From: a phage
Length of the DNA: 64,000 bases
Sequence record: PQ374922.1
Strand: one strand, 5' to 3'
The notes below the pieces were generated by a model that made no database searches, was not told the origin of the DNA, and was given only the letters and a program-made list of their open reading frames with translations. This document shows positions 49,063 to 55,123 of the stretch, piece by piece. The position numbers and the translations under genes were made by a program. Position 1 is the first letter of the stretch. Each line of letters opens with the position of its first letter.

Positions 49063-49917
49063 ATGTTTCGTTTGAAATTGAACGACCAAGATGTGTTCTA
49101 CAAACACTTCACCTTCCCAGGTGGTGAGGAACATATCAAGATTCAAAAGTCTGGTATCCCTATCGGCCACGTTCAGAACGTGGCGATTGATGCTCACATC
49201 AAATCATCGGCTGACTTCATTGAGCTGGCGCTTCTGGTAAACGCCGTTCGTGGTCTGGGTAACGTGGACCGTCTGACGACATTCCATGCGTATATCCCTT
49301 ACTTCCCGTATGCTCGCCAGGACCGCCATTGTGACTTCGGTGAGCCTCTGTCTGTGAAGTGGGCGGCTGAGTTCATCAATAGCATGAACTTTGACCGCGT
49401 GGCGATCAAAGATCCTCACAGCCATGTTGTGTCTTCTCTGATCAACAACGTCCATGTTGTCCCGCAAGATTACATCGTGCGTCAGTATCTGGGCTGGTTC
49501 ATCCGTGGGAACAACGCTGTGTTGGTAGCCCCTGACGGCGGCGCGGCTAAGAAGACCGAAGCCCTCAGTCTGTCGTTGGACGGTGTTCCTGTTGTCTACG
49601 GTCACAAGAACCGTGACACCAAGACTGGTGAGATCATTGGGGTGAGTATTACGAACCCTGAACTGATCAAAGACCGCTATCTGGTGGTGGTCGATGATAT
49701 CTGCGACGGTGGGCGCACGTTCGTTGAGTTAGGCAAAGAGCTTCAGAAGCACAAGCCTAAGCACATGACGCTCTTCGTTACCCATGGCATCTTCAGCAAA
49801 GGTCTCTCTGTTTTCGACGGGATCTATGATGCTGTGTATGCCGACACTGTCTGGTGGGAGAACATCACCGCCGACGGGCTTCCTTTCAAAACTGAAAATA
49901 CAGGACGTGTAAAATGA
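49063..49917 (+). CDS. Ribose-phosphate pyrophosphokinase-family protein (Prs-like; candidate ADP-ribose pyrophosphate synthetase of NARP1)
   Basis: 284 aa; phosphoribosyl-binding loop LVVVDDICDGGRT (diverges from canonical DTGGT); RBS gagg. Confidence 0.8.
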   Translation: MFRLKLNDQDVFYKHFTFPGGEEHIKIQKSGIPIGHVQNVAIDAHIKSSADFIELALLVNAVRGLGNVDRLTTFHAYIPYFPYARQDRHCDFGEPLSVKWAAEFINSMNFDRVAIKDPHSHVVSSLINNVHVVPQDYIVRQYLGWFIRGNNAVLVAPDGGAAKKTEALSLSLDGVPVVYGHKNRDTKTGEIIGVSITNPELIKDRYLVVVDDICDGGRTFVELGKELQKHKPKHMTLFVTHGIFSKGLSVFDGIYDAVYADTVWWENITADGLPFKTENTGRVK

Positions 49918-51578
49918 GCATGCGCCACTTAGACCCAATCCATGCGATCGACTTCTACAAATCGGGGCACATCTATCAGTTCCCTGAAGGCAGTGAGCTG
50001 GTGTTCTCCAACGGAACTCCGCGCTCTAACAAACTGTTCAACTCTCACCTGCCGAAGAACGGCGTGGTGGTCTGGGGCATCCAGGGCTTCATGACCTGGT
50101 TCCACGAACTGTTTGACGAAGCATTCTTCCAGCGCCCGAAGGCCAAGGTGCTGAAGAAGTATGCCCGTCGCATGAACAAAGTCCTGGGTCCAGGCCGCGT
50201 CGGCACAGAGCATATTGAAGCCCTGCATGACCTCGGCTACCTGCCTATCGAAGTCCGTGCGCTGCCTGAAGGCACCATGTGTCCGTATGGCGTTCCGGTG
50301 TATGTGATGTTCAATACCCTGCCGGAGTTCTACTGGCTGACCAACTATCTGGAGACTGTGTTCAGCTCTGAGATCTGGAAGCCGATGACGAACGCCACCA
50401 TAGCTCTGCATTACAAGGCACTGATGGTGAAAGCTGCCCTCGCTACGGGAGTATCACCAGACCATTGGTTCATCGACTACCAAGGTCACGACTTCTCCTT
50501 CCGTGGTATGAGCGGGTGGCATGACGCCGCGTCTTCCGGTTCCGGTCATCTGGTGTTCTTCAAAGGCACCGACACCAACCCTGCCCTGGACTTCGTAGAA
50601 GAGTATTATGGCGCAGACATCGACGAAGACTATGTCGTTGCTGGGTCGGTTGCCGCAACGGAACATGCGGTGATGTGTATGGGCACGAAGGATGGTGAAT
50701 TCGAAACCTTCCGCCGCCTGGTGCAGGACGTGTATCCTGATGGCATCGTCAGCATCGTGTCTGATGCGTGGGATTACTGGCAGGTCATCGACGACTATCT
50801 GCCTCGCCTGAAAGACATTATCATGGCGCGCAATGGTAAAGTCGTGATCCGCCCCGACTCGGGCGACCCTGTACACATCGTCGGCGGCTACCGCATCGAG
50901 GGGTTCAAAGACCGCGCTACGCTGAACATCAGCGGCGTGTCTAGCAGCACCGAAGTTATCCACATCGAAGAGACGAACACCTATCACCTGATCACAGGCG
51001 AAGGCACGATCAACTCTCTGATGGCAGATGACCGTAATATCATCAGCCGTTCAGAAGCGGTCGGCTCTATCCAGCGCCTGTGGGAGATCTTTGGTGGCAC
51101 CCAGACTGAAACTGGGCACTTCCTGTTGGATGAGCACATCGGCCTGATCTACGGTGATTCTATCACCCTGGCGCGTGAAGACCAGATCTTTAGCCGTCTG
51201 GCTGACCGGAACTTCGCTTCCATCAACGTGGTGTTCGGTATCGGTTCCTACACCTACCAGATGAACACCCGTGACAGTACTGGCACAGCAGTGAAAGCCA
51301 CGGCTGGTAAAGTGAACGGTGAATTCCGTGAGATCTTCAAAGAGCCGAAGACCGATAAAGGCGGGACTAAAAAGTCTGCGCGTGGTTTCCTTAAAGTCAT
51401 TAAAGACCCTCAGGGTAAACTAGTGTTGGTTGACGGTATCACTTTTGATCAGGTGCAAGACGCCGACAACCAGCACCAGCTGGTGTATCGTGATGGCGAG
51501 TTCTTCAATACTCAAACACTGGAAGATGCGCGTGTTCGTGCTGCTCCTCTGGTGACGGAACTGGCATCACAAATCTGA
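49914..51578 (+). CDS. Nicotinamide phosphoribosyltransferase-family protein (Nampt/NadV-like; candidate nicotinamide ADP-ribose transferase of NARP1)
   Basis: 554 aa; DFYKSGH and RPDSGDP hallmarks of the Nampt family; start overlaps upstream stop (ATGA). Confidence 0.85.
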   Translation: MSMRHLDPIHAIDFYKSGHIYQFPEGSELVFSNGTPRSNKLFNSHLPKNGVVVWGIQGFMTWFHELFDEAFFQRPKAKVLKKYARRMNKVLGPGRVGTEHIEALHDLGYLPIEVRALPEGTMCPYGVPVYVMFNTLPEFYWLTNYLETVFSSEIWKPMTNATIALHYKALMVKAALATGVSPDHWFIDYQGHDFSFRGMSGWHDAASSGSGHLVFFKGTDTNPALDFVEEYYGADIDEDYVVAGSVAATEHAVMCMGTKDGEFETFRRLVQDVYPDGIVSIVSDAWDYWQVIDDYLPRLKDIIMARNGKVVIRPDSGDPVHIVGGYRIEGFKDRATLNISGVSSSTEVIHIEETNTYHLITGEGTINSLMADDRNIISRSEAVGSIQRLWEIFGGTQTETGHFLLDEHIGLIYGDSITLAREDQIFSRLADRNFASINVVFGIGSYTYQMNTRDSTGTAVKATAGKVNGEFREIFKEPKTDKGGTKKSARGFLKVIKDPQGKLVLVDGITFDQVQDADNQHQLVYRDGEFFNTQTLEDARVRAAPLVTELASQI

Positions 51579-51680: not shown

Positions 51681-51896
51681 ATGATACTGAAAGAATGTTT
51701 TACCGACCTGAAGGCGACGTCTGAAAGTATTCCGGCTTGCATTCAGAACTATGCTCCAAAGGATGTGCTCTTGGCTCAGCTGGAGCAGTCTCGTGAATTT
51801 ATCAACAATATGCTGGACTCTGTAAAGACGCGCATCGAAGCCGCTGATGAGTCTGAACTTAACCCTTACGCACAAGGCGAAGAAAACAATGATTGA
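51681..51896 (+). CDS. Small hypothetical protein (71 aa)
   Basis: Weak RBS; overlaps the start of the vWA gene by 8 nt. Confidence 0.35.
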   Translation: MILKECFTDLKATSESIPACIQNYAPKDVLLAQLEQSREFINNMLDSVKTRIEAADESELNPYAQGEENND

Positions 51897-54090
51897 ATCA
51901 TTAGAATTTAAGAATGCGGTTGCGACTGCTGCCCCGTCCAACCATGTAATCGTTGTAGACATTTCCGGCTCTATGTACCGTGCGCTCCCTGAAGTCCGCA
52001 AGCACCTGAAGGAGAACCTGCCATCCCTGGTGAAACCGGAAGACACTGTGAGTGTTCTATACTTCTCATCCAAAGGCGACTTTGGTACTGTGTTCGCTGG
52101 CCGTCAGATCAATGCAGCATCCGACCTGAGCGAAATCAACAATCTGATTGACCGCTTCCTGAAACCGTCTGGTTGCACTGGCTTTGTTGAGCCGTTGAAA
52201 CTGGCGATGGACACTGCTCGTGGCCTGAAGAAGCCTGGCTATGTCAACAACCTGGCGTTCATGACTGACGGGTATGACAACTGCTGGCGTACCAACGAAA
52301 TTCTACTGGTTGCTGAGACCCTGCCATTTGCTTTCGATAACATTACATTTATTGAATATGGCTGGTACTGTAACCGCGAACTGCTGGCGCAGATGGCCGA
52401 ACGCTCTGGTGCTACTCACGTGTTTGCCGAAGGTCAGACCGAATACCAGACCGAACTGGAAAACGTGCTGAAGTCATCAGTGCCGAAGGTGAAAGTTGAT
52501 GTCCCAGTCATCTACACCCATGCCATCTACGTCGAAAACGGTGTGGCAACAGTACTGGCGGTGCAGGACGATGACTCTCACCCGGTCGGCTATGTGAGCA
52601 TCCCTGAGAGCATCACCAAGCTGTGGGTTGTAAACCCTAACATGATCGACCAGCTTGATGCGCTGGCGGATATCCAGGCGGCATACGTGCTGGCGTTCTA
52701 CGGCGTACACATCATGGACGCGGACCTGGTGTGGGCTGCACTGAAGAAAACGGGTGACGTTCGCTTCATCAAACAGTACAGCAACTGCTTCACCAAGCAG
52801 GACTACTCCAACATCAAGAACGATCTGGTTCAGGCGATTGTTGACGACCAGCTGCGCGGCGTTGACGGTATTGACTATGACCTGGTTCCGGCTGAAGATG
52901 CGACCACCGTCGTTGATGTGCTGACGTACCTGGCTGAAGCTGGTGTGCCTGTTGCTACCAAGCATCCGATGTTCTCCTATAAGAGCATCGGGCGCGGTAC
53001 TGTGCAGAAAACCGACGACACCGAAGACAAGCTGGCAGAACAGATCGCGAATGCTCAGTCCAAAGAAGAGCGTAAAGCCCTGGCTCTCAAGCTGGCAGAA
53101 CACGAAGAGTGGAACCCGACGTTCGAACCTACCAACGACCTGGGTGTTGTGCCAATCAGCGATTTGGTCTATAACTCCGAGCGCCCGAACATCAGTGTGC
53201 GTACAATTCAACACGGTACTGTGGCTGTGCCTGAATTCGCACAGAAGAAGTTTGGCCTGCCTGAAGAACTGGACACTTTCCAGTGGCGCAACTACACCAT
53301 CGTCAAAGACGGCATCATCAACGTGAAGACTCTGCCGTTCAAGGCTGATATCGAAGTTGTACAGAAGCTGATCGAAATGGGCGTCCACGTGTTTGGTGGT
53401 CCGGAAGTGTTCATCCTGAACCTGGAAAGCGTACCACTGGTCAACCGCGCCATGGTCAAGAACATCAGTGCTGCTCAGTTCTTTGCGGATAATGTCCGTT
53501 TGGAAGCCCTGAAAGGCAAGCAGAAGGTGCTGAAGTTCTATCGAGACGCCCTGGTTGGTAAGGGTAACGCCAAAGGCCTGGCAGTACAGTACGGTGCTGA
53601 GGCGGCCGAGTTCCTGTCCTCCTACGGTATCCGCGATTACGGCTTCTCACCGAAGACTGAGACCAAAGAGTCTACCGACTTCTACATGAGCCGTGAGCTG
53701 AACGTTAAGATCGCCGGGGCGTCTTCACTACCGAGCATCGCGGCAGTACAGAAGAAGATCGCAGAGAATAAGAAACTCAATGCTGGTGACTTGTTTATCG
53801 CCAATGCTCTGAAAGAGTACGAAGCATTCGTGAAGTCTCCTATGATCACTGCCGTGCCTGAAGCCTTACAGAAACAGCTGATCGAAAACTGGATCGACGC
53901 TGCTGCCAAGGCGGCCATCACCGAAGTCCGTGCCCTGAACAAGACACTGTCTAAAGTGGTGTATGGTATCGTTGCTGGCCACGGCTGGTTCACCGACCTC
54001 GACCTGGAAGAGTCCACCATGGAAGTTGAAGTGGATGGCGTGAAGTACAAGGTCACTGCCGAACTGACAGAGAAAGAAATCAAAATCTAA
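51889..54090 (+). CDS. von Willebrand factor type A (vWA) domain protein (733 aa)
   Basis: N-terminal MIDAS-like VIVVDISGSMY (DxSxS); long C-terminal region unrecognised; start chosen at second in-frame ATG. Confidence 0.6.
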   Translation: MIESLEFKNAVATAAPSNHVIVVDISGSMYRALPEVRKHLKENLPSLVKPEDTVSVLYFSSKGDFGTVFAGRQINAASDLSEINNLIDRFLKPSGCTGFVEPLKLAMDTARGLKKPGYVNNLAFMTDGYDNCWRTNEILLVAETLPFAFDNITFIEYGWYCNRELLAQMAERSGATHVFAEGQTEYQTELENVLKSSVPKVKVDVPVIYTHAIYVENGVATVLAVQDDDSHPVGYVSIPESITKLWVVNPNMIDQLDALADIQAAYVLAFYGVHIMDADLVWAALKKTGDVRFIKQYSNCFTKQDYSNIKNDLVQAIVDDQLRGVDGIDYDLVPAEDATTVVDVLTYLAEAGVPVATKHPMFSYKSIGRGTVQKTDDTEDKLAEQIANAQSKEERKALALKLAEHEEWNPTFEPTNDLGVVPISDLVYNSERPNISVRTIQHGTVAVPEFAQKKFGLPEELDTFQWRNYTIVKDGIINVKTLPFKADIEVVQKLIEMGVHVFGGPEVFILNLESVPLVNRAMVKNISAAQFFADNVRLEALKGKQKVLKFYRDALVGKGNAKGLAVQYGAEAAEFLSSYGIRDYGFSPKTETKESTDFYMSRELNVKIAGASSLPSIAAVQKKIAENKKLNAGDLFIANALKEYEAFVKSPMITAVPEALQKQLIENWIDAAAKAAITEVRALNKTLSKVVYGIVAGHGWFTDLDLEESTMEVEVDGVKYKVTAELTEKEIKI

Positions 54091-54096
54091 TCCAAC

Positions 54097-54121
54097 GGGC
54101 GGGGCAACCCGCCTTTCTTTG
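54097..54121 (+). terminator. Terminator-like hairpin (ggcggg-gcaa-cccgcc + T-tract)
   Basis: After stop at 54090. Confidence 0.6.
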
Positions 54122-54132
54122 GGAGAAGTAGC

Positions 54133-54456
54133 ATGAGCAGTAAACCAACATATGTTGAAGTCATGCGTCATCTGGCTCAGTACGCCACTGACAATCTGAA
54201 TATGGATCTGTGGCGTGACGATGACAAGCGCAAATTGCTGGACGACGTGGCATCTCAGAACGAGGACGCCCTGGACAAGCTGGCTGGCCTCCGTACCAAG
54301 AAAGACCTCGGCGGTGATGAACTGGATGCCATCGAAATTGTAATGGAACTAGAAGAAGAGTTCAACGTCGAAATCGACGACGGTTGGCTGGGTAGTAAAG
54401 GTGATGACCCGACCATGGGTGAACTCGCTGAACTCGTGGTTGCCCTGCGCAAATAA
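54133..54456 (+). CDS. Acyl carrier protein-like protein with Glu replacing the phosphopantetheine-attachment Ser
   Basis: KDLGGDELDAIEIVMELEEEFNVEI aligns with the E. coli ACP core [25 protein letters not shown]; residue 63 (54319-54321) is GAA/Glu where ACP has Ser. Confidence 0.65.
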   Translation: MSSKPTYVEVMRHLAQYATDNLNMDLWRDDDKRKLLDDVASQNEDALDKLAGLRTKKDLGGDELDAIEIVMELEEEFNVEIDDGWLGSKGDDPTMGELAELVVALRK

Positions 54457-54460
54457 CAGA

Positions 54461-54490
54461 AGCCCCCAACAAACGTTGGGGATTTTTACT
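54461..54490 (+). terminator. Rho-independent terminator (cccccaac-aaac-gttggggg + T-tract)
   Basis: 8-bp stem plus T-run after stop at 54456. Confidence 0.65.
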
Positions 54491-54564
54491 TTTAGGGGTT
54501 TACTTCCTCTAAGGAATGTCCTATTATTCAATAACTGGCGAACGATGGCGTTCACCAGATTGAG

Positions 54565-54819
54565 ATGAAGGATTACATTATGAAACTGCCTGGTTACGTT
54601 GACATCTATGCCCGCCTCGATAAAGACGGCAATCTGAAAGCCAAAGAATTGACGCACATGATTATCAAGTACGGCGTCGACACTGTGGTCGAAGTTGAAA
54701 ACGAACAAGTTAAAGGTGAGTATGTCAAAATTAAAGGGTGTGGCCTCAGAACAAACCCGACTTACTTTGTGGGAGTTCACCTTGACACAGGTAAAGAAGT
54801 CGTGGAGATGGTGGCATAA
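54565..54819 (+). CDS. Hypothetical protein (79-84 aa; start 54565 or 54580)
   Basis: Second ATG has better RBS (aagga). Confidence 0.45.
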   Translation: MKDYIMKLPGYVDIYARLDKDGNLKAKELTHMIIKYGVDTVVEVENEQVKGEYVKIKGCGLRTNPTYFVGVHLDTGKEVVEMVA

Positions 54820-55064
54820 TGTCAAATAAGAACAAGATGGTAGAAACCTCAGTAGAGATTGATCGCAATTGGGGATTGCTCCGCGCTAAAGGGTTCCGCC
54901 GTGTGTATGCGACCAAAGAAGTCTACGCACAGCGTCGTGACGTTATCATCAGCAAGAAAGGCAAAGAGTGGGTTGCTGAAGAAGTTGATGTCGAGACAGG
55001 CATCGTGGGAAAGGTAAAGGCCAAGGCCGCGATCCTCTTCGCTCTTCTGAAGCACATCAGTTAA
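54819..55064 (+). CDS. Hypothetical protein (81 aa)
   Basis: TAATG stop-start overlap with the upstream gene. Confidence 0.45.
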   Translation: MSNKNKMVETSVEIDRNWGLLRAKGFRRVYATKEVYAQRRDVIISKKGKEWVAEEVDVETGIVGKVKAKAAILFALLKHIS

Positions 55065-55123
55065 TTCTATAACTTTGGGCGGGGTATGATTACCCCGTCT
55101 ATTTGAAACCAAGAGACTATATC

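Follow-up and report, generated by a model that had tools for sequence, protein, structure and literature searches.

Acyl carrier protein (ACP) serves as a hub at the center of bacterial lipid metabolism and also has many clients outside metabolism. Here, we describe a gene in a 64,000-nucleotide stretch of phage DNA (sequence record PQ374922.1; the whole stretch is referred to as the window) that encodes a 107-residue pseudo-ACP, a protein with the ACP fold but without the serine to which phosphopantetheine is attached. By analogy, its closest documented precedent is the mitochondrial ACP (mACP) of Plasmodium falciparum, in which the modified serine has been lost while the protein and the acidic contacts of its helix II have been retained (PMC8547962). 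The residue that replaces the serine in mACP, a Phe, contacts Isd11, and mACP is an essential, pantetheine-free subunit (PMC8547962, eLife 2021). The two proteins differ in that mACP has the LYR protein Isd11 of the Fe-S machinery as its partner and resides in a eukaryotic organelle, whereas the phage protein carries Glu or Asp and belongs to a lytic phage.

Two other kinds of ACP bear on the comparison. The apo and unmodifiable forms of E. coli ACP have the ACP shape without the prosthetic group and still bind ACP clients; according to a review that cites Keating, Carey and Cronan 1995 (PMC3896788), they strongly inhibit both glycerol-3-phosphate acyltransferase and the growth of E. coli. These are laboratory or transient host forms with a neutral replacement, whereas the protein described here is encoded by a phage, has diverged and has an acidic replacement. 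Serine-type phage ACPs (ICP1 ORF97, eugene VPLG_00009, PHROG 5934) are likewise small, phage-encoded and similar in helix II; unlike the protein described here, they keep the DSLD motif, can presumably be pantetheinylated and have no adjoining vWA gene. Two of them, ORF97 of Vibrio phage ICP1_2006_E (L017:4938-5258) and VPLG_00009 of Vibrio phage eugene (L018:2447-2746), are recorded as hypothetical proteins and are DSLD ACP homologues; about 4 kb separate ICP1 ORF97 from the cas1 gene of the phage CRISPR-Cas system.

Genome papers have named the gene under study "acyl carrier protein" on the basis of its Pfam clan (PMC3220722; PMC10892097), and a 2024 review of the Ackermannviridae mentions neither the ACP-like protein nor the vWA protein encoded beside it (PMC11721090). 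A full-text literature search found no description of phage ACPs that lack the serine. Neither the ACP fold nor the concept of an ACP that works without pantetheine is new; what does appear to be new is that such a protein occurs in phages, that the replacement is consistently acidic, that it recurs and that the gene is linked to one for a protein with a MIDAS motif.

Results

The product is a divergent ACP-fold protein

The original prediction described a 107-residue, ACP-like open reading frame (ORF) containing the core of ACP helix II. The ORF is present (Table 1), and three kinds of match agree on its identity. The protein scores 26.7 bits against Pfam PP-binding (PF00550; cut-off 20.8), which places it in the PP-binding superfamily, and it matches PP-binding_2 weakly; it also matches PHROG 4154, "acyl carrier protein", at 2.6e-57. 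A phmmer search of the PDB returned ACPs exclusively, with E-values of 2e-6 for the Plasmodium apicoplast ACP, 4e-6 for B. subtilis ACP and 1e-4 for E. coli AcpP, and a profile of 34 homologues matched 85 ACP sequences in the PDB at E<=1e-3, the best at 3.6e-8. Judged by these comparisons, the product of the ORF is homologous to type II ACPs. Against the NCBIfam ACP equivalogs (TIGR00517 and its relatives), the best score was 35.8 bits where the cut-off is 70.45, and because its scores lie so far under these cut-offs the protein is regarded as a divergent ACP-fold protein rather than an AcpP orthologue.

The resemblance extends to the predicted structure. An AlphaFold2 (AF2) model built from the 34-sequence alignment contains helices I (residues 7-21), II (63-77), III (83-88) and IV (95-105), together with two short extra helices in an enlarged loop I, where the inserted residues are modeled with low confidence. 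Glu63 is the first residue of helix II, and the whole forms a four-helix ACP bundle at moderate confidence. In a Foldseek search of the PDB, the credible and significant matches were all ACPs (TM-scores of 0.6-0.78, normalised to the target), and the BFVD model of the ACP homologue of phage ViI superposes on the AF2 model with a TM-score of 0.88. The ACP fold, for which structure prediction had been proposed as a check, is therefore upheld at that level of confidence.

With bacterial AcpP and the PF00550 family the phage protein shares the four-helix fold, a near-identical helix II, the conserved I/D of loop II and an acidity like that of AcpP (pI 4.3, net charge -14). It differs from AcpP in being only about 27% identical, in having about 25 extra residues in loop I and the family motif W-x-G-x(3)-D-D-P-T in the loop spanning residues 85-94, and in having no fatty acid synthase, polyketide synthase or phosphopantetheinyl transferase genes nearby; with Glu or Asp in place of Ser, it would be expected to accept neither phosphopantetheine nor an acyl cargo.

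The ratio of nonsynonymous to synonymous substitution rates (dN/dS) for the gene is 0.31 in comparison with phage EspM4VN; it is a genuine gene on which purifying selection acts. In the virion proteome of phage Sajous1, one peptide each was reported from the homologues of the ACP-like protein and of the vWA protein (PMC10892097). A role as a virion component was considered and rejected, as a single peptide per protein fits traces and not structural proteins.

An acidic residue replaces the serine throughout the family

That Glu should occupy the position of the modified serine of the DSL motif, as had been read by eye, is borne out by alignment to ACPs of solved structure. In the HMMER alignment to PfACP (query segment kdlggdeldaieivmeleeefnveidd), Glu63 stands opposite the DSL serine, and the family profile agrees. 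Of the 34 aligned homologues (56-96% identity), 32 have Glu at position 63, the other 2 have Asp, and none has Ser. An HMMER scan of 1.8 billion representative proteins added full-length relatives at 33-50% identity, all of which read D-E-L-D or D-D-L-D/S, and in IMG/VR, 22 Ackermannviridae contigs have Glu or Asp alone at this position, Asp being typical of one 105-residue Kuttervirus type. Two distant homologues, gp097 of Serratia phage 3M (Miltonvirus) and a 99-residue ORF of Erwinia phage phiEa2809, both have DELD although they are just 17-33% identical to the window protein in two alignments. Thus Glu or Asp, and never Ser, is found in Agtrevirus, Kuttervirus, Limestonevirus, Taipeivirus, Miltonvirus and Nezavisimistyvirus-type phages, and the core D-[ED]-L-D-x-I-E-x-x-M-x-L-E is retained while overall identity drops to about 20%. 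From any Ser codon, at least two base changes are required to reach GAA.

The phiEa2809 ORF (NC_027340; L010:4810-5109, between NW77_086 and NW77_085) is unannotated and lies right after the vWA gene, where the public annotation has a 440-bp gap. It encodes a divergent Glu-type ACP-like protein (hidden Markov model E=1e-8) with the motif HFAMDELDYIEFIM.

Could the protein nevertheless be a carrier that is loaded unconventionally, by an enzyme of the phage or the host, on another residue or on the Glu/Asp carboxylate itself, for instance in a pathway of phage DNA or lipid modification? Many records do annotate it as an acyl carrier protein (PMC3220722), and phages do encode serine-type ACPs, among them ICP1 ORF97, that of Vibrio phage eugene and at least 420 matches in IMG/VR. 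Against this, a tabulation of all Ser, Thr, Cys and Lys residues across the family, undertaken for an alternative acceptor, revealed no conserved Ser; Thr94 is only a helix N-cap and is missing from distant family members. To our knowledge, the serine of helix II is the sole residue that known phosphopantetheinyl transferases modify. There is no second, canonical ACP gene in the window, and the annotations of the syntenic 27 kb of EspM4VN, a part of that phage genome, include no phosphopantetheinyl transferase, synthase, ligase or other ACP-using enzyme. Pfam and NCBIfam scans of the immediate neighbors identified the vWA protein, NAMPT-like and Prs-like proteins and small unknowns. The distance from every NCBIfam ACP equivalog cut-off speaks against a carrier as well. 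Because Ser has been replaced by Glu or Asp family-wide and no other Ser is conserved, a carrier role is very unlikely, and unconventional loading strikes us as highly implausible. The protein is, as firmly as sequence evidence allows, not expected to be phosphopantetheinylatable, and since it could then not be a carrier, the label "acyl carrier protein" is misleading.

Helix II is the conserved part of the protein

The 34 homologues show no variation at G60, G61, D62, L64, D65, I67, E68 or E74 and next to none at M71, L73, E75 and E76, with E75 conserved in at least 90%. The sole block that is invariant family-wide is D62-[E/D]63-L64-D65-x-I-E68-x-x-M71-x-L-E74, to which I81 and D83 can be added. 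By hand count, 12 of the 16 residues of helix II are identical to D35-F50 of E. coli AcpP; the sequence comparison gives 17 of 26 over a slightly longer stretch. In E. coli ACP, D35, E41 and E47/E48 are each needed for recognition by AcpS in vivo and form ion pairs with AcpS (10.1101/2025.01.28.635281, a 2025 preprint). All of these residues are kept in the phage protein, as D62, E68, E74 and E75, and of the counterparts of the docking acids of AcpP helix II (D35, D38, E41, E47, E48), D62, D65, E68 and E74 are invariant. Such strong conservation of helix II fits a role in binding, whether as a mimic or as a subunit.

Outside helix II the protein evolves fast. Between the window and contig L002, the vWA protein is 74% identical and the ACP-like protein 44%. 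The loop I insertion (residues 24-47) is a mosaic: phages that are nearly identical in the ACP sequence on either side of it have one or the other of two versions without relation to each other, …MDLWRDDDKRKLLDDVASQNE… and …LEVSDEDKSSIKGIVDAEVVIN…, which suggests recombination or diversifying selection in this loop.

Replacement of the serine by an acidic residue recurs in other phages and in bacteria

A scan of IMG/VR with the pattern D[ED]LDx[IV]ExxM yielded 41 confirmed ACP-like proteins, 19 of which are encoded on viral contigs (22-350 kb) outside the Ackermannviridae. The corresponding pattern DSLDx[IV]ExxM matched more than 600 stretches, at least 420 of them confirmed as Ser-type, so that the acidic types are a minority (<~10%) of phage ACP-like proteins with this helix. 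The closest relatives of the acidic types outside the Ackermannviridae are mostly Ser-type phage ACPs (43-60% identity) and not each other, which suggests repeated changes from Ser to an acidic residue, as far as short sequences and a larger Ser set permit. None of the 19 contigs has a vWA homologue within 6 kb of the gene. A partner was sought in their gene neighborhoods, and no neighboring family is common to them.

An extended DNA pattern, applied to viral contigs, returned 37 confirmed Glu/Asp types in many sequence contexts and 20 confirmed Ala/Thr types, about 18 of which come from one near-identical family of 79 residues. Since the acidic types come from many lineages and the Ala/Thr types nearly all from one family, a carboxylate is the favored replacement among phage ACP-like proteins that lack the serine, and negative charge itself appears to be selected at this position. 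The 79-residue family has Ala where the serine would be (EDLKGDALDAIELVMRLE) and so represents another, distinct type of viral ACP-like protein without the serine; it was found on about 18 small viral contigs (L144-L166, IMG/VR, 4-15 kb) from related metagenomes.

The same pattern matched 95 stretches in 185,579 bacterial and archaeal genomes, and 73 were confirmed. Many of these cellular acidic-type proteins belong to Planctomycetota, Cyanobacteria and Bacteroidota; they are often longer proteins, and several are located behind lipoprotein-type signal peptides. On contigs L279, L295, L215 and L265 (Planctomycetota, Myxococcus), Glu/Asp-type domains follow a signal peptide with a lipobox-like Cys (…LSTAAGCDGG…, …VFVLGCDTSK…). 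ACP-fold domains of this lipobox type would be exported and so be beyond the reach of a cytoplasmic phosphopantetheinyl transferase. The bacterial acidic-type domains thus point to cellular uses of the fold that are apparently independent of pantetheine, and the change from Ser to an acidic residue is, by these pattern searches, a wider phenomenon than the original prediction assumed, reaching unrelated phages and bacteria.

The varied settings of the bacterial domains bear on another reading of the phage protein, namely that it is an acidic helical protein that mimics no ACP partner. It might imitate nucleic acid toward a host DNA-binding or defense protein, or serve as a small scaffold, the Glu or Asp mainly stabilizing the cofactor-free fold through a cation; the ACP fold would then have been no more than the starting material for its evolution. 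Its charge would suit such a role, as would the contexts of the bacterial domains, which are quite different from one another, include positions behind lipoprotein signal peptides and imply that the domain can have roles with no connection to ACP clients. Fast evolution outside helix II and a hypervariable loop insertion are common in host-interaction genes, and the gene lies 2.5 kb 3' of a probable anti-defense pair, the NARP1-like Prs/Adps and NAMPT/Namat homologues. The constraint, however, is strongest exactly on the residues with which ACPs dock to their partners and not on a generic acidic surface, and some relatives do not have the NARP1-like genes alongside. PADLOC models gave nothing significant for the ACP-like protein, and neither the anti-defense catalogue paper nor the NARP papers mention an ACP or a vWA protein. 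We judge this reading to be quite improbable.

The adjoining vWA gene

The ACP-like gene had been placed immediately after a gene for a 733-residue vWA protein, and that is where it lies. The vWA protein has 747 residues when read from the first ATG (51847) and 733 when read from Met15 (51889); because its homologues begin at the equivalent of Met15 (MIESLEFK), 51889 is the likelier start and 51847 is probably unused. A 71-residue ORF (window 51681-51896, + strand) overlaps the first in-frame ATG. The protein has an N-terminal vWA domain and beta-sandwich, and the C-terminal ~450 residues matched no solved structure. All of 75 vWA homologues, at identities down to 35%, keep the MIDAS residues D38, S40, S42, T111 and D141 unchanged, and the protein has a complete MIDAS (DxSxS...T...D). 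Members of the family are 720-790 residues long and conserved over their full length (window 51847-54090; RB43 ORF119c, L008:2495-4714; Thanatos-1 TH1_124, L011:2501-4654), and some records annotate them as tail proteins.

A Glu or Asp from a ligand completes the MIDAS in integrin I domains, in anthrax toxin receptors and in the MIDAS domain of Rea1. The pairs formed by integrin I domains and their ligands, or by Rea1 with the Glu of the ubiquitin-like domains of Ytm1 and Rsa4, resemble the phage locus in that an intact MIDAS is found beside a small protein with an exposed, invariant carboxylate. It is thus conceivable that the pseudo-ACP is a subunit or adaptor of the vWA protein, that Glu63 completes the metal coordination of the MIDAS, and that the two proteins act jointly early or midway in infection. 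The invariance of the MIDAS implies a functional site, which needs an acidic ligand, and residue 63, the most exposed partner-facing spot of the ACP fold, is always acidic.

The arrangement of the genes is in keeping with such a pairing. At all the Ackermannviridae loci that were examined, the ACP-like gene comes directly 3' of the vWA gene, except in Miltonvirus, where it lies about 0.9 kb 3'; the pairing persists where the upstream genes differ, and the unannotated ORF of phiEa2809 follows the same placement. The spacer, 42 nt in the window and 40-58 nt among relatives, contains no promoter-like site in the window, so that the two genes are probably co-transcribed. This spacer (window 54088-54135; contigs L001, L002, L004-L007, L010, L015) always has a GC-rich hairpin of 6-8 bp, and in nine related phages the sequence of the stem varies while pairing is kept; several lack a U-tract. 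As the U-tract is often missing and no promoter lies between it and the start of the ACP-like gene, the hairpin may be intercistronic and not a full terminator; it looks like a conserved intercistronic RNA element, such as a partial terminator, a stabilizer or a processing site. The gene had been described as bounded by terminators. Terminator-like hairpins do stand on both flanks, but this reservation applies to the upstream one.

The linkage does not hold beyond the family. With tblastn, the ACP-like protein was found in 279 phage records, essentially all Ackermannviridae. The vWA protein was found in 504, among them those of T4-like Straboviridae (RB43-like, Klebsiella and Cronobacter phages) and of Shewanella phage Thanatos-1; a tblastn search with the divergent 3M protein added only Ser-type ACPs of ICP1-like and other phages. 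An ACP-like ORF was sought within 2.5 kb of the vWA gene of RB43 and Thanatos-1, and none was present; the ORFs downstream (205 and 156 residues) have neither an ACP motif nor a significant Pfam match. The genes therefore do not co-occur wherever either is found, and because each family also occurs without the other, the pairing is a trait of the Ackermannviridae and not an obligate two-gene system. The MIDAS of the Straboviridae and Thanatos-1 proteins is equally invariant without an ACP-like gene, which argues that the ACP-like protein is generally not its ligand, and this sets the phage proteins apart from the established MIDAS-ligand pairs. The 19 viral contigs that have a Glu/Asp-type protein without a nearby vWA homologue weigh in the same direction. 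Moreover, three ORFs intervene between the two genes in Serratia phage 3M, and adjacency may simply be inherited synteny. Since the family shares synteny over the entire region, the adjacency, though real, is weak evidence for a complex, and we consider it unlikely that the pseudo-ACP is a subunit of the vWA protein.

Genomic setting

A megablast search with positions 51800-55100 matched 202 phage records. The best matches, with about 96% identity, were Escherichia phages YX22, RPN242, LHE287 and AV101. Next came Enterobacter phage EspM4VN (Agtrevirus) and phages of Kuttervirus, Limestonevirus and Taipeivirus; from these relatives, the window comes from a Vi01-like phage of the Ackermannviridae. 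In EspM4VN the syntenic genes run as follows: sliding clamp, clamp loader, RegA, MazG, ..., ribose-phosphate pyrophosphokinase and nicotinamide phosphoribosyltransferase, then a small ORF, the vWA protein, the "acyl carrier protein", small ORFs, denV, ..., spanin and helicase. In the window (49063-51578, + strand), a gene for a Prs-like ribose-phosphate pyrophosphokinase homologue of 284 residues, which scores under all NCBIfam cut-offs, overlaps by 4 nt a gene for a 554-residue NAMPT-family protein. The pair lies just 5' of the vWA and ACP-like genes in the window and in contig L015, but not in L005 or L007; a review of the Ackermannviridae describes NAMPT and ribose-phosphate pyrophosphokinase as variable among Agtrevirus phages. 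The features of the locus are collected in Table 1.

Table 1. Positions, in the window, of the pseudo-ACP gene and associated features
Feature	Position	Strand	Basis
Pseudo-ACP gene, 107 residues; ACP fold without the phosphopantetheine-attachment serine	54133..54456	+	ORF, ATG start
Shine-Dalgarno-like GGGAGAA, 5 nt 5' of the ATG of the ACP-like gene	54121..54127	+	sequence reading
GAA codon encoding Glu63, aligned with the DSL serine that bears 4'-phosphopantetheine in true ACPs	54319..54321	+	sequence and alignments
Helix II, the "recognition helix", residues 62-77, DELDAIEIVMELEEEF	54316..54363	+	conservation
Variable loop I insertion, ~25 residues (24-47), absent from canonical ACPs	54202..54273	+	alignments
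vWA protein, 733 residues; N-terminal vWA domain and beta-sandwich; candidate partner	51889..54090	+	
MIDAS motif D38-I-S40-G-S42 of the vWA domain; other MIDAS residues T111, D141	51958..51972	+	homologue alignment
GC-rich hairpin within the 42 nt that separate the vWA stop from the ACP-like start	54097..54114	+	terminator-like scan
Intrinsic-terminator-like hairpin, then ATTTTT, just 3' of the ACP-like stop	54464..54481	+	scan; EspM4VN has one too

Discussion

The pseudo-ACP would be a descendant of a type II ACP that is no longer able to carry anything, and what selection has kept would be the ACP scaffold and, above all, helix II. Because the acidic helix II is the surface with which every ACP docks, the protein is better regarded as a putative docking module than as a carrier. 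The most likely mechanism, which we put forward tentatively as a fair possibility, is that the pseudo-ACP acts as a decoy or inhibitor of a host ACP client through helix II. The face of this helix would bind a host protein that recognizes AcpP, such as an enzyme of fatty-acid, phospholipid or lipid A synthesis, AcpS or another client. The Glu or Asp side chain may replace the charge of the pantetheine phosphate, or may ligate a metal in an active site, for example the Mg2+ of AcpS. Client proteins hold that phosphate with basic residues; in the human Isd11-ACP complex, for example, it is Arg6 that contacts the phosphate oxygens (PMC8547962). Cofactor-free ACP, with its inhibition of the acyltransferase and of growth (PMC3896788), provides the functional model for such a decoy. 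The outcome would be a non-productive complex that cannot be acylated, and an ACP-dependent host process would be decoyed or inhibited. A host target is favored because acidic-type ACP-like proteins occur in unrelated phages without a common phage partner, and a host ACP client is ranked as a likelier target than the vWA neighbor.

Several observations weigh against a decoy. In all ACPs helix II is the part that varies least, and it would therefore be expected to be conserved even if the partner were a phage protein; the family-wide linkage to the vWA gene, probably in one transcript, fits a vWA subunit. The AF2 model reaches a mean predicted local distance difference test (pLDDT) of 73.5, which is moderate confidence. 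The acidic residue might merely stabilize the apo fold by reinforcing the known binding site for divalent cations (metal site A) next to residue 36. Finally, AcpP makes up 0.25% of the soluble protein of E. coli and is among its most abundant proteins (PMC3896788), and because AcpP is so abundant a competitor would need very high expression or a much higher affinity.

A more general proposal is that pseudo-ACPs with a Ser-to-Glu/Asp change are recurrent, convergent phage effectors, in which the carboxylate would mimic the phosphate on the pantetheine arm or ligate a metal of an active site or of the MIDAS. They would lock either an ACP-recognizing host protein or the phage vWA machine encoded beside the NAD+-reconstitution genes, and thereby shut or redirect an ACP-dependent host process or a defense in the course of infection. 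We regard this broader claim as rather doubtful.

The gene is present in essentially all Ackermannviridae, a family whose phages are widely used against Salmonella, E. coli, Klebsiella and Dickeya in therapy and biocontrol. If a decoy role is true, a cofactor-free ACP look-alike that retains the docking helix would be a natural probe or inhibitor of the ACP hub and a new kind of host-takeover protein. The recurrence of the acidic replacement in unrelated phages and in bacteria points, beyond this family, to an unrecognized use of the ACP fold that is independent of phosphopantetheine.

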